64,000 bases of DNA from Folioceros fuciformis. Taxonomy: Eukaryota. The notes beneath the pieces were generated by a model. It worked only from the letters and a program-made list of their open reading frames with translations, searched no databases and was not told where the DNA came from. Numbering within the stretch: position 1 is the stretch's first letter; each line of letters begins with the position of its first letter. Of this stretch, positions 29,301 to 57,539 are shown piece after piece. The DNA is taken from NCBI GenBank assembly GCA_049999805.1, contig JBNGIO010006284.1:153434-217433 (forward strand). The letters are read 5' to 3'. The translations under genes and the position numbers were made by a program.

Positions 29301-29428
29301 AACGATGTGCACCCATGATTTCGTGAAGTATTCAGTGAACCCATCCAGCCAAGACTGAGCCTAAAATGCAACCCTAGAGCCAGAGCACCGGAGCTGAATG
29401 TTGGGCAGACGATAGTTGGCACGTCCAT
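26339..29428 (-). CDS. PLS-class PPR protein (PPR-2), E1-E2 plus WW-type box, DYW truncated
   Basis: Repeated SLVNMYAKCGSLEDA / VVTWTALIAGYSQQG / VTFVSLLQACA motifs; ends AWKQPGQCWWTDVDGLVHNF. Confidence 0.93.
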   Translation of the reverse strand: MDVPTIVCPTFSSGALALGLHFRLSLGWMGSLNTSRNHGCTSLSSRGAGPLPRGCLCPAHGSNWSMPDDGYLRRPVGYERIVMSEGLSQLCEQGHLSEAVEALGVLVQTDCRVSRTLFYSMIKKCAVYKDLIVGRCVHALTVRVGYESDTFMCNHILRMYASQGKLQEAMEVFTVVAVPDAFMWSSVISAHVALGQAQQAVQLYHDMRASNVKPDGHVFAAALQACAKMGDLETGHQVHADILARGTEPHLIVSNCLVDMYAKCGSLKDARRVFDGLRRRDVVTWTALIAGYSQQGMGEEALDLYGAMQEEGVATPNAVTFVSLLQACALVGNPALERGKQLHAQTRERALETDVSVANSLVNMYAKCGSLEDARRMFEGLGKKDVVTWTALLAGYSHQGMGQEALQLYSAMQEEGVAAPNAVTFVSLLQACASVGTPALEKGKQLHAEIREQGHEVHVRVGSGLVNMYAKCGCLEDAQSVFDALAYKDVVTWTALIAGYSQQGMGPKALQIYSAMQEESISAPNAVTFVSMLQACASVGTLALERGKQLHQQIVERGLNIDAVVGCSLVNMYAKCGSLGHAQAVFDGLRQKNMVTWTTLITGYAKSGKLQDARSIFDQLPEKDVVTWNAVIAGYSQQGLGEEALSLYNVMQDEDLVSPDYVTYVSLLQACASVGTLALEKGKELHAQIRERRLQADVLVANSLVYMYAKCGSLEDAHRIFDGLAQKDVVTWNALISGYSQQGMGQEALCLYKAMQEGRIIAPDPVTYVCLLKACANVAALQVGRQLHAEIEQQGLHTDVLVAASLINMYSKVGSMVDAQQVFDTLIERDGVVWNSLIAGYTCQGDSKVVFDLFHRMRWDGIQPTDITFLCVLTVCSHKGLVHEGQQYFKAMSRHYGITPTAEHYTCMVDLLGRAGRLEEALDLLRTIPVQPSAAVWHALLGACQKWGEVELGCHAFDEALKVDKMDAAAYVLMLNIYRGARMWERAHETQTRRTGIRAWKQPGQCWWTDVDGLVHNFLVADESLWRVG

Positions 29429-29721
29429 CCGCCTTTGCAGAGATAACCTGTTTCCACAAGCGTTGCAGGAGGCATCGCTACACACCCATGTGGATCTTTG
29501 GAAGAATATTGAAGAGTGTCTATCAACTTGCCGAATTCAGAACTGAATGAAGCCCGGTATGAGAAACTCGGTCAAGCAGCCTAAAGAATTACAGAAGCTG
29601 TGACCCTCTAAGCTGGCATGGTCGACCCCAACCATCCTCCATCCCCGTACATGGCGAGCCACCCTGGTTCAGCCACGCATAAAATATTAAAATACCTAAA
29701 ATACAGTTAAACTTGTACGGT

Positions 29722-34454: not shown

Positions 34455-34743
34455 CCCAATAACCTGCGGACTCAAGCTTTAACACAAAACCACACTCAGT
34501 CACGGCATCGGAGCCAGTGCCACAGACGCTTGAGTCCATATCCGCATGCACCAGCACAGATGCGCTGCATACAGTAGTCCTTCTCATACACCAGGCCACG
34601 GACTTTCACGGAGTCCTGGGCTAGAACGTGAAGAAGAGCTTGCAACCATATCCAAAATCAATCTGACCACCATGGGAAGGAATGGTAGGATCCAAAAACA
34701 AATTCAAAGCGTTGGATGGAGATGTCAACGGATAGTGTAATCA

Positions 34744-35400: not shown

Positions 35401-36168
35401 AAAAAGAAAAAGAAAGGGAAGCAGATCCCTAAACTTTAGCTCATCAATGTGGCCTGTAGCCAAATCAGTGTATCAAAGCTTTGGAACCGAAATCCTGGAA
35501 CTTTGGCTCGGAGCACACCAATGTATGGACTGTTGCTGGAGCAGCTGCCAAGTCCTGGTATGTAGGCACTTAGGCAACAGGCCACGGACGCAGTTGGACG
35601 TCCTGGACTTCAATCAATGCACTGAAGAACTTGTAGCCACATTGAAAATAGCATGAGTTCCATGGACAGAACAGGAATGAAGACTTGAAGCATTCTACTT
35701 GGTGGCCTGGACACAGGCACGATGCGGGCAACGAAATTCGAACCCAAATTGTTTTATTGAGAACTGGGTATCTAACCATGTAACCTGCACCAGATCTGCC
35801 CCCTGGGTTGCCATCTGGCTTGACAACCTGGTCTCCAGATTCGCATGCTGCGTGTCTGACTTTGCAGCTCTCCAGACAACCATGTTTACAATCTTGGAAC
35901 TTTGGAAATTGGAATGCTTATCGCTGGGAGCATGCAGGCTTGAGGATGTTGAGTTTTGTCGTTTTTTTGTCTTTTGGCAACTTGCCGGGACAGCAGCAGC
36001 GCGCAGCAGCAAGCAATCCATCCAGCAGGAGCAAATTCCCTGTGGTTAGGTTGTTTTTGTCTACTTGTCCAAGCATCATGTGTGCTGGACGATCTCTTCC
36101 GAGTAGCAACGGAAGTGCAAGGGTGTGTACAGGAGACACAGGTTCAGGTTCACCGTGTGCTTCCAAAA

Positions 36169-39100
36169 ATGATGGTTGCTTGCCGCGTTGCACTCAACTC
36201 ACGGAAAGGGCGAGGGCCTCTTGCGGGGACAGCTCTCGTGACCCCGACAAGCCGAGAATGGTGGGATGACGGGTACAGTAAGGAAAGCTTTGCAGGGCTA
36301 ACGTCAACCCGCGAATCGGGTGACGCTGTGTGCACGTTATGTGAGCAAGGGCAGGTCGATGAGGCTGTCGAGGCTCTGGGAGTACTAGTGCAGACAGACT
36401 GTGGAATCTGTCACTCTCTCTTTTACACAGTGATCAGAAGCTGCATGCTTCGGAAAGATCTGGTTCTGGGTCGCCGTGTTCATGCTCTCATAGTGGAGCA
36501 GGGGTATGAGTCTGACACGTTCCTGTGCAACCAGGTGCTGCGAATGTATGCTTCCCTAGCCAGGTTGCAAGAAGCTGTGGATGTGTTTTCTCTGGTCGTC
36601 AAGCCAGATGCCTTCATGTGGTCTTCCATGATGTCTGCACATGTCAACCATGGACAGGCCAAGGATGCCGTAGAGCTGTACCATCATATGCGTAGGTCTA
36701 GTGTGAAGCCAGATGGGCATGTTTTTGTGGCAGCCCTTCAGGCTTGTGCTAGAGCACGGGACTTGAGAGCTGGGCAGCAGGTGCATGCTGATGTGTTGGC
36801 TAGTGGCGGTGAGCCTCACTTGTGTGTCAGCAATGCCTTGGTGGACATGTATGCAAAGTGTGGCAGTTTGGGAGACGCTCAGAAAGTGTTCGACGGGCTC
36901 GGTCAGAAAGATGTGGTGACATGGAATGCCTTGGTAGCAGGGTACTCCCAGCAGAGCATGCTGCAGGAAGGACTTCGTCTCTACAGGGCCATGGAAGAGG
37001 AAGGCATGGTGGCCCCAAATTCCGTGACGTACGTATGCCTCCTGCGGGCATGTGCAAGTTTGGACACCCAAGCGTTGGAGACAGGGAAGCAGCTTCATGC
37101 ACAGATCCGAGAACGGGGCCTTCAAGATAATGAGTTTGTGGCCAGCAGTTTGGTACAGATGTATGCAAGATGTGGCAGCCTGGAGGAGGCTCAGCGAGTT
37201 TTTGGTGAATCCGGTAAGAAGGATGTTGTCACCTGGACAGCTCTGATTGCAGGGTACTCCCGGCAGGGAATGGGTGAGGAAGCCCTTCATCTATACAGTT
37301 CCATGGAAGAAGACGGTATTGCTGTACCCAACACTGTGACATTTGTGTCTCTCCTGCAGGCATGCGCGAGCGTGGGTACCTCAGCTTTGGTTCAGGGGAA
37401 AGAGCTCCACGCACAGATTGGCCAAAGAGGACTCGAAGCTGATGCCTTTGTAGGCAGCAGTCTGGTGAACATGTATGCAAAATGCGGCAGCTTGGAAGAT
37501 GCGCGAGCCTTATTTGACGGGCTTCCACAGAAAGATGTGGCTACATGGAATGCCATGATCGCCGGATACTCCCAGGAGGGCATGGGCAAGGGCGAGGAAT
37601 CCCTTCGACTCTACCGCACTATGCAAGACGACGATATTGTTGCCCCCAATTCTGTAACTTTCGTGTGCGTCCTGCAGGCATGTGCAAGTCTCGGCTCCCC
37701 GGCATTGGAGGAGGGCAAGCAGCTGCATGCACAAATCGCACAACGAGGACTTGAAGAAACAGACTTGGTTGTAGCCAACAGTCTGGTTAACATGTATGCA
37801 AAGTGTGGCAGCTTGGAAGATGCTCAAAGAGTATTCGATGGACTTGGTCAGAAAGATGTTATAACGTGGGCCTGTTTATTAGCAGGATACTCCCAGCATC
37901 GCATGGCTCAGGAAGCACTTCATCTGTACAAAAGCATGCAGGATGACGGCATTGCTGTACCCGATTCTGCAGCATTTTCGTCACTGCTGCAGTCATGTGC
38001 AAGTGTAGGCATCCCGGCCTTCGAGGTTGGTAAGCAACTTCATGCGCACATAGGGGAACGAGGCCTCCAGGACGATGCGGGTTTAGGTTGCGGTCTGGTG
38101 AACATGTATGTCAAGTGTGGCAGTTTAGAATTAGCACAAAGGGTGTTCGACAACATGAGCGAAAAGAATGTTATGCTGTGGACTGCTCTGATATCAGGTT
38201 ACGCACAGCAGGGCAGAGGGCAGGAGGCGCTTCGTCTTCACCACGCTATGAAAGAAGAAGGATTGTCCACCCCCGACGGTTTCACGTACGCCTGCCTGCT
38301 GCAGGCATGCGCCAGTGTGGGAACCCCGGCTCTGGAGGCAGGCCAGCAGCTGCATGAAGAAATTGAGGACGACGGGTTTCAAGGTGACGCGTTTGTAGCC
38401 AGCAGTTTAATTAACATGTATGCAAAGTGTGGCAGCATGGAGGACGCGCGGTGTGTGTTTGACAGACTTGAAGACAAGAATGTTGTGATATGGAATGCCA
38501 TGGTAGCAGGCTACTCCAAGCAAGGAATGGGCCAGGAAGCGCTTGATCTTCACGGTGCTATGCAGGCGGAAGGCATACCTGACTCTGTCACGTTCGTATT
38601 CCTTCTACAGGCATGTGCAAGTGTAGGCAGCACCGGTTTGCATAGAGGGAAGGAGCTTCATGCGCAAGTTCGAATAGCAGAACTTCAAGATGATGCCTTC
38701 GTGGCCAGTAGCTTGATAAACATGTACTCGAAGTGCGGCAGCCTGGAGGATGCTGAGGACGTCTTCGACAGAGTTGCCGACAAAACTGTAGCGACTTGGA
38801 GTGCCATGATCGCGGCATACTCCCAGCAGAGCAGAAGCCAGGAAGCACTCCGCCTTTACAAAACCATGCAGGCAGGCGGCGGTACGGTCACCCCAGATTC
38901 CGCCACATTCTTGTGCCTCCTCCAAGCCTGCGCAAACACTGCAGATCTGCATCTGGGAAGGGAGCTACACGCGCAAATCTCACAGCAAGGGCTTCAACAC
39001 GACGTCCTCCTAGCCTCCAGCCTCATCAACATGTACGGCAAGTCCGGCAACATGATTGCCGCACAGCAAGTGTTTGACGCCATGGAAGAAAGATCCGACG

Positions 39101-39699
39101 CCGCCTGGAACGCGCTCATCGCCGGCTACACTCGACAAGGATCCAGCTCCGAGGTCTTCACCTCGTTCCAACGAATGCTGGACGACGGGATCCAGCCAGC
39201 CGGCGTCACCTTCCTCCACATCCTCACGGCATGTAGCCACTCCGGGCTAGTGCAGCAGGGGAAAGAATACTTCAACGCCATGACGAGCCTTCACAACCTC
39301 ACTCCCGGAGTGGAACATTACACATGCATGGCGGACCTCCTCGGCCGCGCCGGCCACCTCCACGACGCCTTCACTCTGATAAGCACCATGCCCGTCCCTC
39401 CGTCCCCCGCGTCCTGGCGCGCCCTCCTCTCCGCCTGCCAGAAATGGCGCAACGTGGACATGGCGCGCCGCGCCTTCGACGCCGCCGTGCAGCTGGACGA
39501 GAAAGACGCCGCTCCCTACGCCCTCATGGCCAACATCTACCGGTCCGCGCACATGTGGGAGCAAGGGCAGGAGATCCAGGCCCGGCGAGTGAGCGCCCGG
39601 GCGTGGAAGCAGCCGGGGCAGAGCTGGTGGACGGACATGACCGGAGAAGTGCACACTTTCTCAGTCAGCGGGTGTAAGGCTGAAGGCCAAGTCGGGTGA
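36169..39699 (+). CDS. PLS-class PPR protein (PPR-4), WW-type box, DYW truncated
   Basis: Long P-L-S array; ends AWKQPGQSWWTDMTGEVHTFSV; first in-frame ATG 36169. Confidence 0.94.
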   Translation: MMVACRVALNSRKGRGPLAGTALVTPTSREWWDDGYSKESFAGLTSTRESGDAVCTLCEQGQVDEAVEALGVLVQTDCGICHSLFYTVIRSCMLRKDLVLGRRVHALIVEQGYESDTFLCNQVLRMYASLARLQEAVDVFSLVVKPDAFMWSSMMSAHVNHGQAKDAVELYHHMRRSSVKPDGHVFVAALQACARARDLRAGQQVHADVLASGGEPHLCVSNALVDMYAKCGSLGDAQKVFDGLGQKDVVTWNALVAGYSQQSMLQEGLRLYRAMEEEGMVAPNSVTYVCLLRACASLDTQALETGKQLHAQIRERGLQDNEFVASSLVQMYARCGSLEEAQRVFGESGKKDVVTWTALIAGYSRQGMGEEALHLYSSMEEDGIAVPNTVTFVSLLQACASVGTSALVQGKELHAQIGQRGLEADAFVGSSLVNMYAKCGSLEDARALFDGLPQKDVATWNAMIAGYSQEGMGKGEESLRLYRTMQDDDIVAPNSVTFVCVLQACASLGSPALEEGKQLHAQIAQRGLEETDLVVANSLVNMYAKCGSLEDAQRVFDGLGQKDVITWACLLAGYSQHRMAQEALHLYKSMQDDGIAVPDSAAFSSLLQSCASVGIPAFEVGKQLHAHIGERGLQDDAGLGCGLVNMYVKCGSLELAQRVFDNMSEKNVMLWTALISGYAQQGRGQEALRLHHAMKEEGLSTPDGFTYACLLQACASVGTPALEAGQQLHEEIEDDGFQGDAFVASSLINMYAKCGSMEDARCVFDRLEDKNVVIWNAMVAGYSKQGMGQEALDLHGAMQAEGIPDSVTFVFLLQACASVGSTGLHRGKELHAQVRIAELQDDAFVASSLINMYSKCGSLEDAEDVFDRVADKTVATWSAMIAAYSQQSRSQEALRLYKTMQAGGGTVTPDSATFLCLLQACANTADLHLGRELHAQISQQGLQHDVLLASSLINMYGKSGNMIAAQQVFDAMEERSDAAWNALIAGYTRQGSSSEVFTSFQRMLDDGIQPAGVTFLHILTACSHSGLVQQGKEYFNAMTSLHNLTPGVEHYTCMADLLGRAGHLHDAFTLISTMPVPPSPASWRALLSACQKWRNVDMARRAFDAAVQLDEKDAAPYALMANIYRSAHMWEQGQEIQARRVSARAWKQPGQSWWTDMTGEVHTFSVSGCKAEGQVG

Positions 39700-39716: not shown

Positions 39717-39816
39717 NNNNNNNNNNNNNNNNNNNNNNNNNNNNNNNNNNNNNNNNNNNNNNNNNNNNNNNNNNNNNNNNNNNNNNNNNNNNNNNNNNNN
39801 NNNNNNNNNNNNNNNN
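39717..39816. other. Assembly gap (100 N)
   Basis: N run. Confidence 0.99.
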
Positions 39817-41751: not shown

Positions 41752-42730
41752 ATGGGGCTTCTGGACAAGCTCTGGGACGATATTGTGGCCGGGCCTCAGC
41801 CGGAGAAAGGCCTCGGCAGGCTGCGCAAGGAAAACTCGCTGCGGCAGGGAGTCTTGGACGGCGCAGGTCTCGTTCTTGTTTTGTTGGAGTCCGTAGAGGT
41901 GCTGTTGCGAGCTTTGGTGTGGTGTGGAGACGGCGTGGCGGTGCTCCGGTAGCTGGATGAGTCTTGTGAGTGTGTTTCGTTCAGAGAGATGGTTGCATGC
42001 ATGCTGACGGACGGCCGGACGGATGGACGATGGTGTGAGTGCAGAATTGGATGAGAGTGCTGCCAGAATGATGTGTCGGAGGCGTAGTGGAGATTTCCAG
42101 TACCAGCAGGACGAGGCCCGGCGTGTGACGCAGAGCATTTCCATTGCTAAGCCTCCCATGCTCCAGACCGTCGTCCAGGAGGACGCTCCCGGATCCCTTC
42201 CTTCTACTCCGGTGGCGCAGAGTCCGCTCTCGTCTTGGCCGTCACCAAGTAAGCGTTGTTGTGTTAGGACGGGTTTTGGAAGTGGTTTGTTGTGATGGAG
42301 GATGGGGAGGGAGAGTTTACGAGTGGTGCTATCGTCGGTGAGCAGGTCCGAGGGAGAGAGACAATATTTGGCGGAGTGTATTCAATTCCGGGAGCAACAG
42401 GGCTGTGGATCGGGTCGGATCTTCCAAGTTCGACAAACAGTCTCCGAACTCTCCCACCGTGTATGACTGGTACGGCTTCCTGTGTGCCGTCTGCGTGTTC
42501 TTCGCTGGTTTGGTGTGGATAGGTGATGTTTAGCTCACGGGGGGTACGAGCTTGTTCTAGGGAGTTCGTGGATTCAGTTGTGTGAGATTGTCGGGTAGCA
42601 GCTTCTGATGCCTGCATTCGAAAGCTGTTAGTACTTGTATCCAAAACAAACTACCACCTTGCTAAACCTGTAGGTGCAACCCGTGCTGAATTTGCATCGC
42701 AGGGTAGTGATCAGTGCCCTGGACAAGTAA
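41752..42730 (+). CDS. Dormancy/auxin-associated protein (DRM1/ARP family), about 4 exons
   Basis: MGLLDKLWDDIVAGPQPEKGLGRLRK, VTQSISIAKPP, NIWRSVFNSG, PTVYDW|VVISALDK*. Confidence 0.9.
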
Positions 42731-43957
42731 AGGAGAAATGCACCGCTGCGCGCGGCGATCCCTTTGTGCCCGTAGGCGGGCGAATATTCCTTCTCTGGGT
42801 GGCTCTTGGTGCAGCTGACCGCCGTCAGTACGGCGCCAGTTCAGGCTGTCTGTGAGAGTCTCGGTTCACATCTTAAACGGATCTGTAGTAATCTGGCCCT
42901 CTTCTCGTGTCATGCCGACATGCTTGGTGCAGGCCTTATTGTGGGGACATGAAGTATGGTTGGCGCTGAAGAAGGAAGCATCAGTGCATGTAACATATGG
43001 TTTTCTTTCCTGTCTCTGGGAAAGCCAGGAGTGTGAGGAATCTGGTTGTGAATATGTTGAAGGGGATGCCAGATCAAGCCCATGAAGGAATGACAACAAC
43101 TATAATCGCTCTGCGCGCACTTGGAGTGAGCTGTCCGAGTGAGCAGTAGTCGCTGTGTTTTCCAGTAACATCTCATCTCAGGCATAGCCTCATTTGTACA
43201 TTTCAGTGTTCGAAGTGTGAAGGTGCGTGTTCTTCTCTCCCGACCTTTCTTGGAAGAGTAGAGAAAAGAGGTTGGGTGTACAGTTTTGCGACGCTTGGAG
43301 AGGGCATTTGGTATCTTCTATCTTGGATACCGCAGCTTGCAACATGTATGATAAATAAGTCGTGGCCTCTTTCCGTGACACTTTCTCTTCTCTGAATGCC
43401 TTCATTCTTTGTTACGGAGCGAACTCTGCTCCACAATGTTGTTCACTCTCTCCTCATATGTCGAGAATGCTTGTTGCCAGAATGTACAGAAAGCCTGGGA
43501 GAAGCTGCGTAGCGTGTTTCCCAGTTGCCCAGTTTGTCCTGACATAGAGAGCATATTTGGAACGTGACAAAGTCATACAACGACTATACTAAACCTGCAG
43601 CGTTGAAGAGCCGGAACCTAGCCCAGACTGTGCACCACGTCCCCTTGCTGATGTCACGAGCAGCTGGACGGTAGTTTGACCCTCTTTCTTTCCTTTAGCT
43701 ATCCTTGACCCTTTCTCTTGGCCCGCAGCCATACAAGAAATGGTGAAATAATCAATGCTTCCAATTTTCCAGCCAATCTGCAACAGACGGCAAACAAAGA
43801 TGTTGCTTCGAATTCATCATCCCGATCCACTACACAACCAAAGGGCAAATTTCGAAGAGGCAGAGAAAAATGGAGCACCTGGAAAGTGTGGGACAACGGC
43901 CCTGGAGGTTCGTGCAGATAAGAGCCCGATGGCAGATTGGATGACGCAACTTGCGTG

Positions 43958-46900
43958 TCACTGGTTATCCCCACATGAACAGAAACCATCCACGAAATGG
44001 TGGACGGAATGCGCATCTCTAACTATGATCTCCCTCTTCTCAATTCTTGACATAATCTTGGTGCCGCTGTGGCAGTCATCACACATCCGCAGGTTCTTGG
44101 TGACCAGCAACGTTGTGCCGTCTGGTGTGTTCAAGAGCCCATACGCTAATGCCAGTTTCTCAGCATGGCCACACAGGGCATCCTCCTTCTCGCTGTCAGA
44201 CAACGGCTTCAGCACCAAGTGTGCGTGGGGTACATGGCCTCCTTCCTGCTTCAATCGTAAGTTCACATTCGAAAGCTTTGAGGAGATGTCTTCCCTTTCT
44301 TCCCCCACCGTGAAGCCGTGGGCCTTTCTGTTCACCTCAATCCACGCCTTCGCTGGCTTCTTCCGAGCACCTGCTGCCTTTCTCAGCTTCTCTACCGCGT
44401 CCACATCCTTCCATCTGCCGGCACTTCCGTAAATGCTTGCCAAAAGCACGTACGCTGCTGCATTCTGAGGGTCCATTTCCACAAGAGAGTCGAAACAGCG
44501 TCTTGCGCGCTCCATGTCCCCATAGCTTTTGCAGGCAGTCAGCAGAGATGTCCAGCCGGCAGCAGCATTCTGGAAAGGCATTGTTCTCAACAGCTTCTCT
44601 GCCTCGTCTAGATGCCCGGATCTGCTCAGGAGATTAGCCATGCAGTTGTAGTGATGCACGGAGGGGGTGATGTTGTAGTCCTCCTCCATCGTCTTGAAGA
44701 GGTTCCGACCCTCCTTCACCAGGCCCTCGTGACTGCATGCTGCAAGAAGGCAGATGAAAGTGGCGTCGTTAGGCTGCACACCCTGCTGCTGCATCGCTCG
44801 GAAGCACTGTAACGCATTTCGACCATCTTTATGTTGCCCGTATCCATTCAGCAGAGCAGTCCATGTCACCACGTTCCTGCTCTGCAAGCTCTCGAAAACT
44901 CCTTGGGCTTCCTTCAGGCTGCCACACTTTGCATACATGTCCACCAGGCTGCTCCCGACAACCGCATCGCCTTCCAGTCCCCTTTCTTGAATTCGTGCGT
45001 GTATTTGCTTTCCCTGGTGTAACGCTCCGATGCTGGCACATGCCTTCAAGAGGCACACGTAGGTAACAAGGTCTGCTGGCGTGAGGCCCTCCTCTTGCAT
45101 GCTTGTGTACAGATCGAGGGCTTCTTGACCAAGTCCTTGTTGGGAGTAGCCTGCAATCATGGTAGTCCATGTGACCACATCCTTGAACTGTAAAGCCTTG
45201 AAGACTGCGTGAGCATCTTCCAGGCTTCCGCATTTTGCATACATGTCCACCAGACAGTTCCCAAGCACCGCATCGATGTCGATGCCTCTTTCTTGAATCT
45301 GCAAATGAATGGCCTGGCCCGCTCGCAATGCTCCGATGCTGGCACAAGCTTTCAGGAGGCACACAAAGGTGACACGATCCGCTGGAGTCCATCCCTCCTG
45401 CTGCATGCTAGCGTAAAGCTTGAGGGCCTCTTCACCAAGCCCATGCTGTGCATAGCCTGTGATCATGGTGGTCCAGGTCACCACGTCTTTTAATGGCAGC
45501 TTGTCAAACACTCTACGAGCATCCTCGAGGCTCCCACATTTTGCATACATGTCCACTAGGCTGTTTGCAACCACCATATTTGCTTCCAGCCCTCGTTTCT
45601 TAAGGTGCCAATGGAGATCTGTACCTTCCCGCAAAGCTCCCATGCTAGCACAGGCTTTGAGTAGGCAGACAAATGTGACATGATCAGCAGGAGTGATTCC
45701 CTCTTGTTGCATACTTTCGTACAGAGCCAAGGCTTCTGAAGCAAGCCCCTGCTGCGCATATCCTGTTATCATGGCAGTCCATGTCACCACATTTTTCGTA
45801 GGCAACCTGTCAAAGACGCTGCGGGCATTCACTAAGCTGCCACATTTGGCATACATGTCTACCAGACTGCTGCCTACGACCACATCAGTTTCCAGGCCCT
45901 TTTCTCGAATCTCGGAATGAAGTTGCTTTCCATGATTTAGAGCTCCAACACCAGCAGAAGCTTTCAGGAGGCACACCAAGGTAATCTTGTTGGGAGAGGA
46001 GATGCCCTCGAGCTGCATACTTGCATAAAGATTGAGGGCCTCCTGACCAAGCCCGTGCTGGGCGTATGCTGCAAGCATGGCATTCCAGGTAACAACATCT
46101 TTCGTGTGCAGTCCTTCAAACACACGATAAGCATCCTTTAAGCTCCCACATTTCGCATACATGTCCACCAAGCTGTTTCCAACAAACAGATCAGATTCTA
46201 ATCCTCTGGCCTGAATTTCGGAATGAAGTTCCTTCCCTTGCCGTAAACCCCCAATGCTAGAACAAGCCTTCAGTAATGACACATACGTGACAGGATCAGC
46301 CAGGATGGTGCCCTCCTTTTGCATACCAGAATATAGGGAAAGGGCCTCTTGCCCGAGCCCATGCTGAGCGTACCCTGTGAGCATCGTATTCCACATCACC
46401 ACATTTCTGGTAGGCCAGCTGTCAAACACTCTACGAGCATCCTTCACGCTTCCACATTTTGCATACATGTCAATGAGACTGCTGCCCACATACACGTTCA
46501 GATCTTCAACACCCTCTAAGACATCTGCATGAATTTGCTTTCCAGATGCCAAATCGGCTGCAGTCGCACATGATTTAAGCGCTGCCACAAATACATGATT
46601 GCTTGGCTTCACGGGGGACTGCCTCATCAGCTGATAGAGCCGAATCGCTTGAATTGGCTGATTGTGTTCCGCGTGTGCTGAGATGATGGAAAACCACATT
46701 GACGGGCTTGGAGCATCCAATCTTGTGAACACCTCTGCCGCCTCCTGCAAATTCCCATGAGAAGCATACATGCGGATGATATGACTTGCCAAGAATTTGT
46801 TCGATTGGTAACCATTTTTAAGAGTAAGGACATGGATAAGCCTGCCAACATCCCCATCTTTCTGGGCAGTGCACCTTTTAAGAACACGAGAAAACAGAGA

Positions 46901-47665
46901 CGCAGGAACAGACGATCCTTGGCTGACCAAGCGGTCCAGTGCTTCTACCGTCTCATGCAGTTTTCTCTCTTCACACTCTGTACTCCATAACCCAACCCTT
47001 GAAGCCTCTTCATCCCTTGCAACCCTGCAACATCATGATGACTGTCAGAACAACTGGGTTCTCTTTCGAGGCAGCACAGTCATATGGAAGATGGTGCTCA
47101 AAAGGGGAGAGGAGGATTAGACCTGCAACTGCTCTCCCAATCCGAGAACCCGTCGTCAGAGGATGCCTTCGACCTACTAATAGTCTGTGGTGGTAGAAAA
47201 AAATCCTCCTCCGTTCTGCTGGGATTGCAGTTCCTCTGAAATGCCGCACAGCTTTAGATCCCCTCTCCACCGATACACAGAACAAATTAATTGCGTCTAC
47301 GTCAGATAGCTACACAACAATTGCTGGGCATCTGATTTACCTGAACCGTATTTTGCAACCACTGGGAGGGATCGGTTTCCCACAATGCGTCCCTTGCACT
47401 TCGCTCGCCTGCAGGCCAACTTCATGTAAGATTCTGCCACCACATCGGCTGAAACTGAAAGCAAAGGCCACGTGAACTCCGTCCACATAGGCCATCACTC
47501 ACCGGGCCACGATGCATGATTGCGTTGCTCCGCTGCGCCCTGCAATGCTGATATGTACCTGCACCAATCCTCCACAGGGCCGCGAGAACTGGGTTTGATT
47601 AATATCAGGTTGGATAGAGTAAGACTACCGCCTTTCAGCATTTGTGCTGGTTCCCCCCGGCACAT
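43958..47665 (-). CDS. PLS-class PPR protein (PPR-5) with complete DYW:KP-type deaminase-like domain; candidate U-to-C editing factor; exons ~47665-47503, 47408-47341, 47235-47123, 47024-43958
   Basis: 23 P/L/S motifs, E1, E2, KPAKAWIEV, LCGHAEKLALAYGLLNTPDGTTLLVTKNLRMCDDCH, CSCGDNQ*; three 94-105 bp GT-AG introns with matching phases 1/0/2; start codon uncertain. Confidence 0.93.
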
Positions 47666-47998
47666 GCAACTCAGGAGCACCAGATCTCAGATTCAGGGGT
47701 AGACACGCTTCTTATACACAATTCCAGGGCCATAGCTAGCCGAGGCTGAATTCGAGTAGATGTATCCATATGTCCCGGTAAAGGGGAAAAAACGCTGCGT
47801 GATTGGAAACGGCCCACCAACTGGATCAGCATGCCGCACGCCTGGAACTGCGACTTCAGCCCTTCAGGGAGGACCTGGCACAAGCTTCAGATCGATTTCG
47901 CGCCAGAAGCCGAAGCTCCAGGTCCAGGGAAATACGTATACTCAAGAGTATGCGAACATCCGTGAAGCTGGACCTGCTGTCTCACAGCAGAAATAGTG

Positions 47999-50900
47999 AT
48001 GTTGTTGAAGGCAGTTCCTGCTACAAGTTCAGACAAAAGGAATATTCTAATTGCAAGGAGAGACCTGTGCTTGGGGATTCAGGCCTTACAAGAGGTGGAT
48101 GGCGATGGTCCTAATGTGAATGTGCAACCAGCAAGACTGAGGGAGTCAAAACTGGCCTTGGCTGCTGGCAAGGCCATTTGGTAAGCCTTATGTGCATTGT
48201 TGACTAGGAGTGTCTGCTATACATGCCAAGGTCAAGTGCTCTCTAAGAACCAAATGCTTCTGATTCTCTGCTCACAGGGCTGAGAGTTCGGGAGGTGGAT
48301 GTGCACTAAGAAAATCTTGCGACGATGGGCGGCTGGAAGGGGAATTGGATGCACTTTTGCTTATGGACCAGCGTGGCATTGTGCCTTCGGTGCAAATGTA
48401 TAAGCACCTTTTGCAGGCTTGCATAGCAAAAAAAGACCTGAACGAGGCCAGGAAGGTGCATGCTCATATAGCAAAGAATGAGTTGGAGTCCGACAGATTT
48501 TTGGGTGAGTGGATTGTCAACACTCTTGTCAGTTGTGGAAGCCTTGAAGAGGGGCTGCAGGTGTTTCAAAGGTTGTTGCACCCAACTACCTTCGCTTGGA
48601 CATCTCTTATCACTGGGTATGCAAAGGCTGGACGATGTCGAGAGGCTTTATCAGTGTATCAGTGGATGCAAGAAGAGAGTCCACGGCCTAACAAACATAT
48701 GTTGGTCTGCTTACTGAAAGCTTGTGGCAAGTTGAGAGATTTGGTTAACGGCAGGATGATTCATGCCAGCATAGTCAGAGACAGATGGGAGTTTGATGTA
48801 TTTGTGGGCACAGCTTTGCTTGACATGTATGCAAAGTGTGGGAGCCTTTTGGACGCACGGTATGTGTTTGACAAACAGCCTGAGCGGAACGTTGTATCCT
48901 GGAATGCTATGCTTGCAGCATATAGTCAACATAACAGGGGAGAGAAGGCTTTACAGCTATATGATCAGATGCAGAAGGAAGGTGTCTCTCCAGATGATAG
49001 AACATTTGTCAGTGTGCTTCAAGCATGCAGTAGCATGGCTGAAGAGGAGGAGGGAATTCTATTAGATGGACAATGCTTCAAGGTCCACTCGCTGAGAAGG
49101 GGGAAGGCAGTACACGCTGCAGCTGCCCGGAAGGGTTACGAGGGAGATGTATTTGTTGTTACCACTCTGGTTAGTATGTATGCCAAAAGTGGGAGCATCA
49201 CAGACGCCGAGCAGCTGTTCAATCGCATGTCATTCCGCAACGTGGTCTCATGGAATGCAATGCTTTCAGGATATGCGCAGCAGGACCAAGGAGAGACGGC
49301 TTTACGACTATATCTCCAGATGCAACAGAATTTCGTGATTCCGAACGATCGGACCTTTGTTAGTGTGCTACAAGCATGTGGCAGCCTTGCAGAGAAGGAG
49401 GAAGCATGGTTGATTGATGGGCAGTTTGTGAAAGTGAAAGCACTACGATGTGGGAAGGCAGCACACGCGGAGGCTGTTTCCAAGGATCATGAATCAGATC
49501 AATTCATTCGCAACGGCCTGATCAGTATGTACGCGAAGTGTGGGAGCATGGTGGATGCGCAACAGCTGTTTAATAGATTCCCCAAACGGGATGTTGTAAC
49601 ATGGACAGCCATGATTGATGGATATACCCAGCAGTCACTAGGAAAGAAGGCTTTACAGCTTTTTGATTTGATGTCTTCCGTTGGCGTTGCTCCAGACGAC
49701 AGGACCTTTATCATTGCGCTCCAAGCCTGTGGAGTCCTGGCAGAAGAAGAGGAGTACTTCCTTGTGGACGGACATTCTGTGAAGCTGGAGTCACTGCAAA
49801 GGGGGAAAACAATCCATGCAGCTGTTCTTCGTAGTGGTTACGAATCAGATGAGTTTGTTGCTAGCACTCTTGTTAGCATGTATGCAAAATGTGGGAGAGA
49901 GGTTGATGCAAAACTTGTGTTCGGAACAGTGGCCAAATGCAATGTAGTTGCCTGGTCTTCAATGCTTGCAGCATACGCTCAACGGGATCAAGGAGAGAAA
50001 GCTCTGCAACTTTATTGCCAAATGCAGGAGGCAGGCGTGCATCCAAACAAGAGGACATTCGTCAGTGTGCTCCAAGCATGTGGGAGCCTTGCTGAGAAGG
50101 AAGATTCTTCTTTTGAACAGGCAAAATACATAAAACCGGATTCGTTGATCCGAGGAAAGGCTATGCATGCTGAAGTTGTCAGGAGGGGTCTTGAATCCGA
50201 CGTATACGTGGGTAACGCTCTCATCAGTATGTATGCAAAGTGTGGAAGCATGATCGATGCCCAGCATGTGTTCGACAGACTTCCCAAGCGCAATGTGGTG
50301 TCATGGACTGCCCTGCTTTCAGGGTATGCCCAGCAGGATCAAGCAGAGAAGTCCTTGCAACAGTACGCCCAGATGCAAGCTGAAGGTTTGAAACCAACTG
50401 CGATCACATATGTGTGCATACTGCACGCCTGCAGCTCCATAGGTGCTCTGAACCACTGCATCCAGATCCACCGTGACATTCTAGAGAGTGGGTATGAGAC
50501 TCATCCACATGTAGCAACTGCCCTGGTTCATGCATATGCGAAGAGTGGCAGCATGTCAGCTGCTCGAGCGATGTTTGACTCACTCCCCCTGCACAGTCTC
50601 CGGTCATGGACTGCTCTGCTTGCCGGATATGCCCGACATGGGCAATATGAGTCCAGCCTGCAATGTTACCAAAAACTGTGTCTGCAAGGCATGGAGCCAG
50701 ATGGCGTCACATTCCTTTGTCTCCTGTCTGCCTGCAGTCATGCTGGCATGGTTTGTCAAGGCTTGGAGTACTTCAGGCTTATGACCACGCAGCATGGCCT
50801 GGCTGCTGGCATGGGGCACTACATGTGCGTCCTGGACCTTCTAGGCCGCGCAGGAGTCTTCCACAAGGCAGAGGAACTGCTTCTACAAATGCCATTCCAG

Positions 50901-51233
50901 CCTAATCTAGATTTGTGGTTGTCTCTGCTAGGGGCCTGCCAGAAACATGGTAATGTGGTGCTCGGAAGGCATGCCTTCAACCGCGCAGTCGAGTTGCAGC
51001 CCAAAGAGAGTGCAGCCTATGTGATCATGTCCAACCTCTACGCTCATGCTAGCATGTGGGACTCTGCAAAGGAGATAGATGAAATGAGGCACAGTTCGGG
51101 TGCACGGAAAACCCCTGGACATACTTGGATTGAACACGAACAAGAGGTGTACACCTTCTGGGCAGCAGACCGCAGGTATGGAGTGCTGTTGGGCTTGCTT
51201 AATGACCTCAACTGCCAGCTGAAGAACCAATGA
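47999..51233 (+). CDS. PLS-class PPR protein (PPR-6) with extra-long L motifs, PG-type box, DYW truncated; exons 47999-48180, 48278-51233
   Basis: P-L-S array with ~16-aa acidic insertions in four L motifs; ends ARKTPGHTWIEHEQEVYTF; 97-bp phase-2 intron GTAAGC...CACAG. Confidence 0.92.
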
Positions 51234-51442: not shown

Positions 51443-54400
51443 TCATGTTGGCCAAAACCTGCTCTTGCCTTGCATAGATGCTTCCGCTCTCAAGAGCTTG
51501 ACATCACCCGCCAAAAATCTGTGCACCACGCCATCTGAGTCAGTCCATGAGCTCTGGCCTGGCTCCTTCCATGCACCGATCTCTGTTCTCCTAACCTGCA
51601 TCTCCTGAGCTTGCTCCGACATCTGGGCACTGGAGTATATGTTAGACATCAAGACATGCGCTGCAGCATCTCTTTTGTCTAGTTTCACTGCTTCATCGAA
51701 AGCTTGTCGTCCCACCTCCACATCACTCCACTTCTGACATGCACCCAATAGAGTGCGCCAAACGGCAGCATCAGGAACAACTGGCATTGACCTTGCTAGA
51801 GATAGTGCCTCGTCCATTTGCCCCGCCCGACCCAGCAGAGCCACCATGGACGTATAATGTGCCGCTGTGGGAGTGATGCCATACTGTCCGCTCATGGCTT
51901 CAAAGTACTCCCGTGCCTTTTTCACTAGACCAGCATGACTGCACACTGTCAGTACATTAAGGAACGTGATGCTGGTTGGCTCGACCCCATCCTGTCTCAT
52001 TCTGTGGAATAAGTCCAAGACCACTTCACTGTCTCCTTGACGGGTGTAGCCTGCTATCAGTGAATTCCATGCAAGGGCGTCCCTTTCGGGCAATGCCTCA
52101 AATACCTGCTGGGCGTCAACCATGCTCCCAGACTTTGAATACATGTTTATTAAACTGACGGCAATCAGTCCATCACCTTGTAGCCCCTGTTCTACAATCC
52201 GTGCATGAAGTTGCCTTCCTATACGCAGACATGCCAGATCTGCACATGCCTGCAGAAGGCAGACAAAAGTCACAGAATCAGGATGAACAATTCCTTCTTG
52301 CTGCATATCAAAGTAAAGTCGCAGTGTTTCCTGCCCCATGCCCTGCAGGGAATATGCCGACATTAAGGCATTCCACGTCACAACATCTTTCTTGGGTAGC
52401 CCGTCAAACATACTCTGGGCATCCTCCAGGCTTCCACACTTTGCATACATGTGTATCAAACTGTTGGTTACAGAGGTATCAGCTTGGAGTCCTCGTTCTC
52501 TAATTTGTGAATATAGCTCTTGGCCCTTCCTCAAAGCCGGGTTGCCAACACTTGCACATGCCTGAAGGAGGGACACGTATGTTACAGAATTGGGTGCAAC
52601 CACGCCTCCTTCTTGCATATCCCTGTGCAGACGAAGGGCTTCCTGGCCCATGCCATGGTGAGAATATCCTGCAATCATAGTATTCCAACTCACCACGTCT
52701 TTCTGAGGATGGCCATCAAAAGCACTTTGAGCTTCCTCCAGGCTGCCACACTTTGAATACATGTCGATCAGGCTATTGGCTACAAACACATCAACTTGAA
52801 ACCCTCCTTCTCTAATGTGTGCATGCAGCTGCCTCCCTTCCTCCAGAGCCAAAGTGCCCATGATTGCACATGCCTGCAAGATGCACACGAATGTTGTGGA
52901 ATTGGGTACAATAGTGCCTCCGTATCGCATAGCCTCGTAAAGATATAAGGATTCCTTCAACATGCCCTGCTGCGCATATCCTGCAATCATGGTGTTCCAG
53001 GTCACAGCATCTTTCTCAGAAAGCCCATTAAATAATCTTTGAGCGTTTTCCAAGCTGCCGCACATCGCATATCCTGCGATCAGAGTAGTCCACAAAACAG
53101 TATTTTTTTCACTGAGTGCATCAAACACAACCTGAGCGTCCTCTAGGCTGCCACATTTTGCATACATGTTTACCAAGCTGCAGCCTACAACAACATCAAT
53201 CGTGAGTCCATGTTCTACAATCTGTTCATGAAGCTGTTTCCCAATCTTCAACGCTGGGGCACCCACACTTGCGCATGCATGCAATAGAGACCCAAATGTC
53301 ACGGCGTCGGGTATAGCTACCCCTTCTTCTTGCATAGCACTAAAAAGACGAAGGGCTTCCTGTCCCATGTCCAGCTGGGAATATCCTGCTATCAGAGATG
53401 TCCACGTGATAACATCTTTATCACCAATCCCGTCGAATACTCGTTGAGCTTCGTCCAAGCTGCCACACTTCGCATACATGTTCACCAAACTGTTGGATAC
53501 AAACACATTTTCTTGAAGTCCGTGCTCTCTGATTTGCTTGTGAAGCTGCTTTCCCTTTTCCAGTGCGTGTGTGCCAATACTTGCGCATGCCTGCAAGAGG
53601 CACACAAATGTCCCAGAATCAGGTGCAACAATGCTTTCTACTTCCATAGCCCTGTGTAGATCAAGGGCTACTTGTCCCATACCCTGCTGAGAGTACCCTG
53701 CTATCATGGCATTCCACGTTACCACAGTTTTCTTCCCAAGTCCATCAAACACTCGCTGAGCATCTTCGAGGCTACCACACTTAGCGTACATGTTTACCAG
53801 ACTGCCACCTAACACCACATCAACTTTAAGCCCTTGTTCTCCAACCAGAGTACTGGCCAACACATCAGCATGCACCTGCTGCCCAGTTTTCAAGTCTGCC
53901 CTCCTTGCACAAGCCTGAAGTGCGGCTACATACACGTGTCCATCAGGCTCCACCCCAGACCTGAGCATCTCCTGATACAGTAGTATGGCAGGTTTGGCTT
54001 GTCCGTGGTTCACATAGGCAGAGATCATGGAAGACCACATGAAGGCATCTGGCTTGGCAACCAGAGAAAAAACATCCTTTGCTTCTTGCAACCTGCCATA
54101 AGAGGCATACACGCGCAGGATATGGTTGCACAGGAACGTGTCCGACGTATACCCCCTCATCACGCTGAGAGCATGGACACGCCGACCTAGCCAGAGATCC
54201 CTCTTTACCACACAGGTTTTGAGGACAGCATAGAACATAGACTGAGGGACACGACATTCCGTCTGCACCAGGACTCCCAGAGCCTCAACAGCCTCAGAAA
54301 CCAGCCCCTGCTGACACAGCCGACTCAGAATTTTCTCCCCTCTCAAAGATTCTCTTAAACGGGCTGCATTTGCAACGTTGCCGTTGCCTGATGTGTGGTA

Positions 54401-54538
54401 TCTTGAAGTCAGCCACGCAGCTCTCTTCCTTTGGTCTTTGAGTTCCGACCCATTGTTCTTCGTTGGATCCAGAAGACTTGTTGCCAGGAGCTGCCCTCGC
54501 CTTCTGTGTGGATGAAATGCAACGCGGCAGACACCCAT
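51443..54538 (-). CDS. PLS-class PPR protein (PPR-7), WW-clade box, DYW truncated by frameshift
   Basis: P-L-S array; AWKEPGQSSWTDSDGVVHRF; E+ sequence continues in a shifted frame. Confidence 0.93.
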   Translation of the reverse strand: MGVCRVAFHPHRRRGQLLATSLLDPTKNNGSELKDQRKRAAWLTSRYHTSGNGNVANAARLRESLRGEKILSRLCQQGLVSEAVEALGVLVQTECRVPQSMFYAVLKTCVVKRDLWLGRRVHALSVMRGYTSDTFLCNHILRVYASYGRLQEAKDVFSLVAKPDAFMWSSMISAYVNHGQAKPAILLYQEMLRSGVEPDGHVYVAALQACARRADLKTGQQVHADVLASTLVGEQGLKVDVVLGGSLVNMYAKCGSLEDAQRVFDGLGKKTVVTWNAMIAGYSQQGMGQVALDLHRAMEVESIVAPDSGTFVCLLQACASIGTHALEKGKQLHKQIREHGLQENVFVSNSLVNMYAKCGSLDEAQRVFDGIGDKDVITWTSLIAGYSQLDMGQEALRLFSAMQEEGVAIPDAVTFGSLLHACASVGAPALKIGKQLHEQIVEHGLTIDVVVGCSLVNMYAKCGSLEDAQVVFDALSEKNTVLWTTLIAGYAMCGSLENAQRLFNGLSEKDAVTWNTMIAGYAQQGMLKESLYLYEAMRYGGTIVPNSTTFVCILQACAIMGTLALEEGRQLHAHIREGGFQVDVFVANSLIDMYSKCGSLEEAQSAFDGHPQKDVVSWNTMIAGYSHHGMGQEALRLHRDMQEGGVVAPNSVTYVSLLQACASVGNPALRKGQELYSQIRERGLQADTSVTNSLIHMYAKCGSLEDAQSMFDGLPKKDVVTWNALMSAYSLQGMGQETLRLYFDMQQEGIVHPDSVTFVCLLQACADLACLRIGRQLHARIVEQGLQGDGLIAVSLINMYSKSGSMVDAQQVFEALPERDALAWNSLIAGYTRQGDSEVVLDLFHRMRQDGVEPTSITFLNVLTVCSHAGLVKKAREYFEAMSGQYGITPTAAHYTSMVALLGRAGQMDEALSLARSMPVVPDAAVWRTLLGACQKWSDVEVGRQAFDEAVKLDKRDAAAHVLMSNIYSSAQMSEQAQEMQVRRTEIGAWKEPGQSSWTDSDGVVHRFLAGDVKLLRAEASMQGKSRFWPT

Positions 54539-55085
54539 GGTTCGCAGCCAAAGGATAGGCTGAACATTGGAGCCCAGAACCCAGCTCCAGTGCGCCAGCT
54601 GGGCTAGTTGCGTTTGAGGTAGTATCCATGTCCAGTAGCGCTAGGAAAGGGTCCCTGATTCCGCAATCTGAAACCCGAATTCTTCAGACACTCCGCAACG
54701 ACAATGTCTCCAGCCGGAATTCCCATACATCAATGTCACCCATCTATATCCTCAGGAAAACGTTAGTCATGAGTTCCGATTTCCTTCTCCAAGAACCAAT
54801 AGAGGTTTCAGTAGGGAGTCATATCGGCCTTCGATCAGGAAAGCCAATCTCAACAGTGATACGCCGCCCAAGGAGAACAGGAGTTCATAAATGAGGGACG
54901 CCATGCAGTTCGAACCCATCTTTCATGTTCCATGGAAGTCTTCAAGCGTGAGCCTTCCGACGACAGAATTTTAGATTGTAGTACGATGCATGGTTGGTAC
55001 ATGAGCGGTTCCATGAGTCCTTTAGCTAAACTGTTTGTACAAGCTGGCTTGTGGTGGTTGGCATGAGGATGTTTAAGATTTGCAG

Positions 55086-57539
55086 ATGGGTGCTGCTCCT
55101 CCTACATACAACCACGGGAGGTTACCGGATGAGGCTCCCCGGTCACCAGCTGCTCACCTTGTCAGAGCTGCAGGTGCAGGATACAGAACGGGAGCTCTGA
55201 CAGCGGAAACCGTGACAAAATTGTGTCAGCAGGGGCAGGTTGCCGAGGCTGTCGAGGCTCTGGGAGTCCTGGTACAAATAGAGTGTTGTTCTTCCTCATC
55301 TATCTTTTATACAGTGCTGAAAGCTTGTGTGGTTGAAGGGGATGTGGTGCTGGGTCGTCGTATCCACTCTCTCAGCGTTAAGCAGGGGTATGAGTCGGAC
55401 ACGTTCCTGAGCAACCACATCCTGCGAATGTATGCCTCTCTTGGCAGGTTGGGAGAGGCAAAAGATGTGTTTTTCATGTTTGACAAACCGGATGCGTTCA
55501 TGTGGTCTTCTATTATTCTTGCCTATGTTAAGCAGGGACAAACTAAAAAAGCCTTACAACTGTATCATCGGATGCAGAGGTCAAGTGTGCAGCCAGATCC
55601 TCATGTGTTTGTAGCCGCTCTTCAGGCTTGTGCGAAAGGAGCAGACTTGAAAACTGGGCAGGAGGTTCATGCCGATCTGTTGGCCAGCGGGCTTGGGCCT
55701 CATTTGTTCGTGTGGAACTGTTTGGTGGACATGTATGCAAAGTGTGGCAACGTGGACGAAGCTCGAAAAGTGTTTGACCAACTTTGTGAAAAAGATGTGG
55801 TGACATGGAATGCCATGATATCAGGGTACTCGCAGCAGGGTATGGGGGAGGAAGCTCTTCGCCTCTACAGTGCTATGCAGGAGGATGGCACGGCCGAACC
55901 TGATTCTGTGACGTATATTAGCCTCCTGCAGGCATGTGCAGGAATGGGCACACTGGCTTTGGAGGAAGGGAAGGACCTTCATGCACAAATAAGAGAACGA
56001 GGACATCATGCTGACTTGTTCGTAGCCAACAGTTTGGTTAACATGTATGCAAAATGTGGGAGCTTGGAAGATGCTCAAATAGTGTTTGACGGGCTTCATC
56101 AGAAGGATGTAGTAACATGGACAGCTCTCATAGTAGGATACTCCCAGAAAGGCATGGGCGTTGAAGCCCTTCAACTTCACAGTGCTATGCAAGAAGAGGG
56201 CGTTGCTGTGCCCAATGCTGTGACATTTTCGTCTCTGCTGCAGGCATGTGCAATCGTTGGTGCCTCTGCTTTGGAGAAGGGGAAACAGCTCCATGCAGAG
56301 ATCAGAGAGCGAGGGTTCAAGGTTGATGTTGTTGTAGGTAGCAGCCTGGTGAACATGTACGCGAAGTGCGGCAGTCTAGAGGATGCTAAGGGTGTCTTCG
56401 ATGGACTTGGTCACAAAAATGTGGTCACGTGGACTGGTCTGATAGCAGGATATGCAAACAGTGGCAGCTTGAAAGACGCTCAAAGACTGTTTGACGAGTT
56501 GCCTCAGAAAGATGTGGTGACATGGAATGCCATGATCGCAGGATATTGCCAGCAGGGACTTGGTCAAAACGCCCTTCAGCTTTACAGGGCTATGCAAGAA
56601 GAAGGAACTGTTGCACCAAATGCTGTGACATTTGTATGCCTCCTGCAGGCATGTGCAAATGTGGCAGCTTTGCATCTGGGACGCGACCTCCATGCACAGA
56701 TTGAAGAACAAGGACTTGAAGCCGATGTCCTTGTGGCCGTCAGTTTGATAAACATGTATGCAAAGTCAGGGAGCATGGTTGATGCTCAGCAAGTGTTTGA
56801 GGCGATGCCCACAAGAAACTGTGTCTCCTGGAATGCACTGATTGCAGGTTACTCCCGTCAAGGAGACAGTGACGCGGTTTTCAACTTGTTGCTCAGGATG
56901 AGGGCGGAAGGCGTCCAACCAGACAGCGTCACATTCCTCAGCATTCTAACAGTATGCAGTCATGCGGGTCTACTGAGTAAGGGCCAAGAGTACTTTGAGG
57001 TCATGATCAGCCAACATGGCATCTCTCCCACACCTGAGCACTACACATGCATTGTTGATCTCCTGGGTCGTGCAGGCCAACTGGAGGAGGCACTAGCGTT
57101 GGTGAAGGCAATGCCTGTACTGCCTGATGCCGCAGTTTGGCACACGCTATTGGCCGCTTGCCGAAAGTGGAGGAACGTGGACGTAGGACATCATGTTTTC
57201 CAAGAAGCTGTGAAACTGGACGAAAAAGATGCTGCAGCCTACATCCTAATGTCGGCCATATACACCACTGCCCAGATGTGGGAGCAGGCACAGGAAATTC
57301 AAGCAATGAGGAGAGAAATCAAGGCTTGGAAGCAGCCAGGCGAAAGCTGCTGGACAGACATGAACGGATGGGTGCATGCTTTTGTCGTTGGGGATGAAAA
57401 CCATCCCGAGAGTGAAGGCATACATGCAATGCTGAAACAGCTCTTCCCAGAAATGAAGGAACAAGGCTATGTGCCACATCTCCAGGAATTCCACCCGGAT
57501 ATATGTGCACCATGTCCAGAAGTGTTCTTGACCTTATGA
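55086..57539 (+). CDS. PLS-class PPR protein (PPR-8), WW-clade E+, DYW truncated
   Basis: P-L-S array; AWKQPGESCWTDMNGWVHAFVVGDENHPESEGIHAMLKQLFPEMKEQGYVP then stop before HxE. Confidence 0.94.
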   Translation: MGAAPPTYNHGRLPDEAPRSPAAHLVRAAGAGYRTGALTAETVTKLCQQGQVAEAVEALGVLVQIECCSSSSIFYTVLKACVVEGDVVLGRRIHSLSVKQGYESDTFLSNHILRMYASLGRLGEAKDVFFMFDKPDAFMWSSIILAYVKQGQTKKALQLYHRMQRSSVQPDPHVFVAALQACAKGADLKTGQEVHADLLASGLGPHLFVWNCLVDMYAKCGNVDEARKVFDQLCEKDVVTWNAMISGYSQQGMGEEALRLYSAMQEDGTAEPDSVTYISLLQACAGMGTLALEEGKDLHAQIRERGHHADLFVANSLVNMYAKCGSLEDAQIVFDGLHQKDVVTWTALIVGYSQKGMGVEALQLHSAMQEEGVAVPNAVTFSSLLQACAIVGASALEKGKQLHAEIRERGFKVDVVVGSSLVNMYAKCGSLEDAKGVFDGLGHKNVVTWTGLIAGYANSGSLKDAQRLFDELPQKDVVTWNAMIAGYCQQGLGQNALQLYRAMQEEGTVAPNAVTFVCLLQACANVAALHLGRDLHAQIEEQGLEADVLVAVSLINMYAKSGSMVDAQQVFEAMPTRNCVSWNALIAGYSRQGDSDAVFNLLLRMRAEGVQPDSVTFLSILTVCSHAGLLSKGQEYFEVMISQHGISPTPEHYTCIVDLLGRAGQLEEALALVKAMPVLPDAAVWHTLLAACRKWRNVDVGHHVFQEAVKLDEKDAAAYILMSAIYTTAQMWEQAQEIQAMRREIKAWKQPGESCWTDMNGWVHAFVVGDENHPESEGIHAMLKQLFPEMKEQGYVPHLQEFHPDICAPCPEVFLTL

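Follow-up and report, generated by a model that had tools for sequence, protein, structure and literature searches.

A probable nuclear PLS-class PPR gene with a C-terminal DYW:KP domain in a bryophyte-like genome, encoding a candidate U-to-C editing factor

The minus strand of the window (the whole 64,000-nucleotide stretch of DNA that was analysed) holds a stop-to-stop open frame of 1024 codons at 43961–47032, closed by a stop codon at 43958–43960, that encodes a PLS-class PPR-E1-E2-DYW:KP protein. We consider it likely that this locus is a nuclear PLS-class PPR gene with a C-terminal DYW:KP domain in a bryophyte-like genome, most probably that of a hornwort, and that the gene is unexceptional within the clade containing the DRH and GRP proteins. 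No candidates for enzymatic U-to-C RNA editing other than DYW:KP proteins are known, and the protein encoded here is itself a candidate native U-to-C factor.

The Pfam families PPR, PPR_2, PPR_1, PPR_3, E_motif, and DYW_deaminase were all detected in the 1024-codon frame, and the motif parse reads L1-S1-(P1-L1-S1)x6-P2-L2-S2-E1-E2-DYW. The N-terminal L1 and S1 PPR motifs (residues 44–109; 46706–46903, on the minus strand like all features of this gene given below) were placed by the motif parse and are aligned with homologues. They are followed by six P1-L1-S1 triplets of 101–102 residues each (residues 110–720; 44873–46705), which are evident from their periodicity as well as from the parse, and by the P2-L2-S2 motifs (residues 721–823; 44564–44872). 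The E1 and E2 motifs (residues 824–891; 44360–44563) were identified by Pfam E_motif (4.5e-18) together with the parse. This succession of P-L-S triplets and then P2-L2-S2, E1, and E2 is the architecture of PLS-class editing factors. The frame runs through its 1024 codons without interruption, with every motif and the catalytic residues preserved.

The DYW:KP domain comprises the 133 residues preceding the stop codon (43961–44359), based on its motifs, Pfam, and the tree and profiles described below. Its match to Pfam DYW_deaminase has an E-value of 7.1e-35, with PPR and E-motif matches in the same frame, and would not arise by chance. DYW:KP domains have been defined by Lys-Pro at the domain start, where PG domains have Pro-Gly (PMC11332814). 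HAE, as against HSE in PG, has been given as KP-specific (PMC9478123), and a deletion of three to four residues, by which xHP is missing, and a length of 132–133 residues have been described for KP domains (PMC9478123, PMC11845758, PMC11713852). The query domain starts with Lys-Pro, carries HAE, lacks xHP, is 133 residues long, and has a non-DYW end. Its KP box, KPAKAWIE (44336–44359), replaces the PG box; Ala at box positions 3 and 5 is found in 78% and 88% of the KP-side rows of our tree, respectively, where PG rows have Gly and Ser.

The HAE motif (44159–44167), in the context GHAEKLA, consists of the zinc-binding His65, Ala66, and the catalytic Glu67, and is aligned with the HSE of OTP86 (H892 and E894). 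Lys88 in domain numbering (44096–44098) is equivalent to K915 of OTP86 and K713 of KP6, and CDDCH (44069–44083) contributes Cys93 and Cys96 to the catalytic zinc site according to the alignment to OTP86. The deaminase signature HxE(x)nCxxC and the active-site Lys are hence all present (H65, E67, C93, C96, and K88). Lys88 and the zinc ligands are common to PG and KP domains, and they discriminate neither the class nor the editing direction. At the C-terminus, CSCGDNQ (43961–43981), the CxC of DYW domains (CSC, 43973–43981) and Asp131 are kept, and Asn and Gln replace Tyr and Trp as the final two residues (DNQ, 43961–43969). The motifs named in the original prediction (KPAKAWIE, HAE, CDDC, and the CSCGDNQ end) were all found on the minus strand at the positions given here, and the missing D..HP region that it had noticed was confirmed as an alignment gap opposite the xHP of PG-type domains.

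Homology to DYW:PG domains is clear, with E-values of 6.3e-35 to OTP86 (PDB 7o4e) and 1.3e-50 to a synthetic PPR-DYW protein (PDB 9kfx). The zinc ligands, the catalytic Glu, the active-site Lys, and the C-terminal CxC of these two proteins are the same in the query. In contrast, the query has KP for PG, Ala for Ser in HxE, and V119 for Phe, and it has no DYW end. In the HMMER alignment, a four-residue gap in the query lies opposite chain residues 22–25 of OTP86. Because H892 is chain residue 70, this gap falls inside the segment described as the gating domain (H837–G891).

A word-based search with query residues 740–937 gave 100 proteins. The best 40 of these 100 were nearly all KPAxA/HAE proteins, with identities of up to 71%, and the named proteins among the best 40 were from ferns, at about 50% identity. 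The 133-residue domain was also submitted to an exhaustive phmmer search, which gave 2479 representatives at E <= 0.001; the best 150 of these were taken. The 244 proteins collected included 243 that match the domain; 219 near-complete domains were kept and the other 24 were dropped. The tree set of 132 rows consisted of all 86 domains that were not HSE-plus-W-ended, 45 drawn at random from the 133 HSE-plus-W-ended domains, and the query. In the tree, which was built from 136 columns with the quick IQ-TREE method and labelled KP or PG from motifs rather than from a published reference set, 63 PG-type and 69 KP-type rows split at an SH-aLRT of 99. The query lies inside a set of 23 KP rows (SH-aLRT 97), which includes nine DRH and four GRP ends. 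Its end branch is 0.13, and its nearest row is P0002, with 77% identity. Because the labels had been derived from motifs in the same sequences, the diagnostic columns (box and gap-region columns, the middle residue of HxE, and the terminal triplet) were removed and the tree was rebuilt; the same 23-row set was recovered at 99, and the KP/PG split dropped to 78. The query scored 208.8 bits against the KP profile, 195.4 bits against a KP profile without the 23-row clade, and 159.7 bits against the PG profile. Placement among the DYW types had been proposed as a check on the first assignment, and by both the tree and the profile scores the query domain is classified as KP type, not PG/WW.

Recognition of DRH and GRP subgroups is reportedly to be credited to Gerke et al. 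2020 and Gutmann et al. 2020. Both subgroups are described as making up hornwort KP proteins (Ichinose et al. 2022, PMC9478123). The query shares with these proteins the KPAxA-type box, HAE, a domain length of 132–133 residues without xHP, and the PLS-E1-E2 architecture, and it falls in one 23-row clade with them at identities of up to 77%. It differs from them in ending with DNQ and in not being nested among the DRH or GRP rows. Its position is at the unresolved base of the clade with rows ending in VDH and DSP, outside a 20-row group (support 91) in which the DRH and GRP rows are found.

The DNQ end and the segment RDAHSVHHF had been proposed as marks of a variant subtype, and in the strongest form of this idea the DNQ end and S118, which is the Ser of RDAHSVHHF, would define a new functional DYW:KP subtype with altered catalysis. 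The DNQ end is indeed absent from the other 219 DYW domains extracted from the collected relatives, and position 133 affected the editing direction in KP6 (PMC11845758). However, one counts 52 distinct end triplets among the 69 KP-side rows, the majority of them found a single time, and 12 in the 23-row clade alone (DRH nine times, GRP four times, and ten singletons including DNQ). Measured against the clade consensus (80% or more), the query departs only at A13 (for Val) and S118 (for Arg), and its end branch is short within a well-supported clade. The query also retains Asp131 and Lys101; an Asp-Lys pair matching these positions is reported to stabilise the PG domain, with the Lys changed to Glu in GRP proteins (PMC9478123). 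Given the number of triplets, the two consensus departures, and the identity to the nearest relative, the two features do not hold as subtype marks, and we regard a separate functional subtype as extremely improbable. Within KP, the end triplet serves poorly for classification, and DNQ is no subtype marker. What stands of the reverse-editing factor of a variant subtype in the original prediction is a DYW:KP domain on a full PLS-class PPR protein, and with it a candidate U-to-C factor; the subtype has to be given up.

The description of the locus as intact is correct for the domain and for the uninterrupted 1024-codon frame, but not for the start of the gene. The first in-frame ATG (Met88, full-frame residue 88; 46769–46771) lies inside the first S1 motif, and the 1024-codon frame contains no in-frame ATG before it, so that the start codon expected of a complete gene is missing. 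An ATGATG at 47036–47031 is one base out of frame and opens an 8-codon ORF (MMLQGCKG and a stop; 47010–47036), which overlaps the TGA (47033–47035) closing the main frame upstream. A further out-of-frame ATG is located at 47013. Because the ATGATG is out of frame and no in-frame ATG precedes residue 88, the full-length protein is impossible by ordinary initiation from this sequence. Translation from Met88 would give a 937-residue protein in which the six PLS triplets and everything C-terminal to them are retained.

The homology of the relatives extends up to 47026–47029, and several homologues start only a few residues away from it, their starts being gene-caller predictions on short contigs. 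One of them, P0020, begins MCRVA, and the window reads a stop and then CCRVA at the same place. A tblastn search of 47033–48400 on the gene strand, for which the N-terminal 260 residues of each of 100 homologues served as queries, gave nothing convincing as an upstream exon (best E of about 0.02 or weaker). No plausible intron adjoins the ATGATG, as the sole adjoining GT..AG spans 7 bases and is too short. The ATGATG is probably a former start codon, and a single extra base just behind the original start codon would be the simplest reading of this region.

DNA contigs of the sequencing runs X1 and X2, which come from one sample, cover 46755–47400 with zero differences from the window. Because these contigs match, the extra base is present in the reads as well, with the proviso that their sample may be the window's own source. 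Contigs of X3, a run from another sample that is taken to be RNA by guess only, match 43700–46782 with zero differences. Their depth, which is 125 at the 3′ end, declines to 7.5; cover is absent at 46800–47047 and has a depth of about 2 at 47048–47400. This cover may reflect a 3′-biased transcript that starts downstream of the out-of-frame ATGs, a reading to be taken with the reserve that contigs cannot show transcript ends and that gaps in them prove nothing. Many contig joints and loose ends were observed in the repeated PLS region (44740–46755). Introns were considered as their source and rejected, since the joints also occur in the DNA runs and lie in repeats, and we read them as cross-matches between PPR paralogues.

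The same region bears on the alternative that the locus is a recently disabled copy, in which the extra base after the original start shifts the frame and abolishes the full-length protein. That the frame is still open over such a length would then reflect merely how recent the damage is. Such a loss would account for an ATGATG that is out of frame by one and whose ORF ends after eight codons, for the lack of an in-frame ATG before 46771, and for the homologue starts close to this point, with MCRVA in P0020 against CCRVA here; the X1 and X2 DNA contigs carry the identical bases. In addition, such PPR genes are reported to be very numerous in these genomes (PMC13386178), so losses of single copies are expected. 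On the other hand, all 1024 codons are open with their catalytic residues and motifs, the gene is covered by contigs of the run guessed to be RNA, and a start at Met88 would retain the six PLS triplets and the whole C-terminal part. The homologue starts, being predictions of a gene caller, also weaken the comparison on which the supposed loss depends. We regard a recently disabled copy as rather unlikely, although it deserves serious consideration, and we judge the corresponding account of the open frame to be equally doubtful. The reading of the locus as an ordinary PLS-class gene with a DYW:KP domain is retained below.

In an ordinary gene of this kind, each of the 25 PPR and PPR-like motifs would contact one base of a single-stranded organellar transcript, and this binding would bring the DYW:KP domain to a uridine that lies a few bases further downstream. 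His65, Cys93, and Cys96 would hold the catalytic zinc, with Glu67 and Lys88 in the active site, and the KP domain would convert the downstream uridine to cytidine via Lys88, Glu67, and the zinc. By the published PPR code, the P and S code residues of the six triplets presumably correspond, from 5′ to 3′, to ?, A, U, U, C/U, A, G, U, G, U, G, A. Read from S1.1 to P2 with the same code, the P and S motifs would give A, U, U, C/U, A, G, U, G, U, G, A, A. With the L motifs left unassigned, the predicted target would be A U n U Y n A G n U G n U G n A A, and the edited base would be expected four bases past the one that faces S2. The RNA target, the organelle location, and the editing direction are inferred, as is whether any protein is made, given that the probable former start codon is out of frame by one.

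The proposed U-to-C reaction has its closest precedents in designer proteins. Seven KP consensus designs have been described, among which U-to-C editing in Escherichia coli is reported only for KP2 and KP3 (GRP) and KP6 (fern), and the activity of designer KP proteins was lost in HAA and AxxA mutants (PMC9478123). The U-to-C activity of designer KP proteins needs the equivalent of Lys88, the loss of which switches them to C-to-U (PMC11845758, PMC11713852). This Lys corresponds to K915 of OTP86 and has been proposed to attack C4 of the uridine (Chun et al. 2024, PMC11713852; Hayes et al. 2024, PMC11332814). According to their authors, the designer KP proteins are not derived from a single native enzyme (PMC11713852, PMC11332814). 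Our literature searches returned no title on an assayed native DYW:KP protein, and the U-to-C candidacy of the query therefore rests on the consensus designs. Compared with KP1 to KP7 on the basis of published descriptions, the query belongs to the same domain class and has the required HAE, CxxC, and Lys88. Whereas the designs are consensus domains on a three-triplet PPR tract, the query is native, with six triplets and extra N-terminal motifs.

The behaviour of KP6 raises the alternative that the active protein edits C-to-U or in both directions. In human cells, this fern-based design edits in both directions, and single substitutions shift the balance (PMC11845758). The balance moved towards U-to-C with substitutions at positions 6, 17, 47, 116, and 119, and towards C-to-U with those at 64, 113, and 133 (Ichinose et al. 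2025, PMC11845758). The query already has G64 and V113 at two of the latter positions, and its active-site residues are common to the PG and KP classes, which would leave room for C-to-U activity. However, T17, A116, and V119 of the query are the consensus states that favour U-to-C in KP6, and Lys88, whose loss turns KP proteins to C-to-U, is retained. The query also belongs to the DRH/GRP clade and not to the fern clade, and GRP-based designers are reported to show only U-to-C in bacteria (PMC9478123). We thus consider C-to-U or bidirectional editing by this protein to be improbable, and U-to-C remains the direction for which it is a candidate.

The importance of a native protein with a defined target is that it would help to show how the U-to-C reaction finishes, as the assayed consensus designs stall in bacteria, where they are described as remaining crosslinked to the RNA (PMC11713852, PMC11332814). 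One could suppose that the query is a native DYW:KP protein that completes U-to-C editing with turnover, unlike the crosslink-stalled designs, and that N132 and Q133 tune the direction or the release. If this were true, its characterisation would be the first for any native reverse editor, and programmable U-to-C editing would gain a better scaffold, but we regard the supposition as very improbable. The query is an additional member of a known and very large family, with nothing beyond many other members. The expectation of a useful editor is weakened: the protein is a usable but unremarkable candidate, with its start out of frame. DRH is the commonest end in its 23-row clade, and KP1, the consensus mainly of DRH proteins, is not among the designs described as active (PMC9478123).

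Another gene of the window points to its lineage. The UNC-93-like gene at 9516–11111 has its best named relatives in liverworts and mosses (59–62% identity), followed by ferns at about 55% and seed plants at about 50% or less. The gene at 43961–47032 contains the one complete DYW domain in the window; six other loci match over only 17–57 residues in tblastn with six DYW domains. Seven other PLS-type frames, which are these six partial-match loci and the frame at 48264–51230, stop in or just after the PGxSWW-type box. Pfam was run on three of these frames and detected the E motif in all three and the E+ motif in one. Across 364 surveyed genomes, DYW:KP is reported from no groups other than hornworts, lycophytes, and ferns, and E+ proteins are described as enriched in hornworts (PMC13386178). 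The one KP gene of the window, standing among seven truncated PG/WW-box genes, fits the picture that this survey gives of hornworts.

The KP gene, which encodes a PLS-class PPR protein with a C-terminal DYW domain of the KP type, is surrounded in the 64-kb window by seven more long, closely packed PLS-type PPR frames. Four of these lie on the minus strand (22163–25449, 26342–29536, 30735–34478, and 51446–54640) and three on the plus strand (35953–39696, 48264–51230, and 55077–57536). All seven end within, or just past, a PG-type box, the counterpart of the KPAKAWIE box of the KP gene, which reads PGQSWWTD in most of the frames and TPGHTWIE in one. Each of the seven lacks a complete DYW domain. 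They are of the E/E+ kind, for which a published survey reports enrichment in hornworts (PMC13386178). These proteins may require a DYW domain supplied in trans.

The frame at 22163–25449 consists of two overlapping frames on the same minus strand (22163–23536 and 23434–25449), which look like a single gene broken by a frame change. This pair is followed by a run of exactly 100 N (25873–25972). Two further runs of the same length are present (39717–39816 and 62996–63095); all three are assembly gaps, and two of the three come directly after PPR frames.

At the 3′ end of the KP gene, a contig of 1377 bases with a depth of 125 from X3, a sequencing run classed as RNA by the tool's guess only, runs from 44078 to approximately 1 kb below 43700 (window positions ~42700–44078), far beyond the stop codon at 43958. 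The neighboring X3 contig within the gene has a depth of 30. The deeper contig represents either a very long 3′ UTR or a more abundant transcript overlapping the end of the gene. Antisense to the DYW domain, there is a 226-codon open frame (43752–44432, plus strand), which is probably a by-product of coding-strand composition. Upstream, the frame of the ATGATG, which is out of frame with the KP gene, remains open for ~100 codons (47037–47340, minus strand); Arg, Ser, Leu, and Gly are abundant in this stretch, which contains no Met.

The window also holds a bestrophin-like frame (5064–5870, plus strand) and a UNC-93-like transporter gene (9516–11111, minus strand); among named sequences, the best relatives of the latter are from liverworts and mosses. 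Several open frames, from 14418 onward, carry parts of a family B DNA polymerase with exonuclease and polymerase domains (18477–19130 and 20678–21418, plus strand), and this locus is evidently a multi-exon gene.
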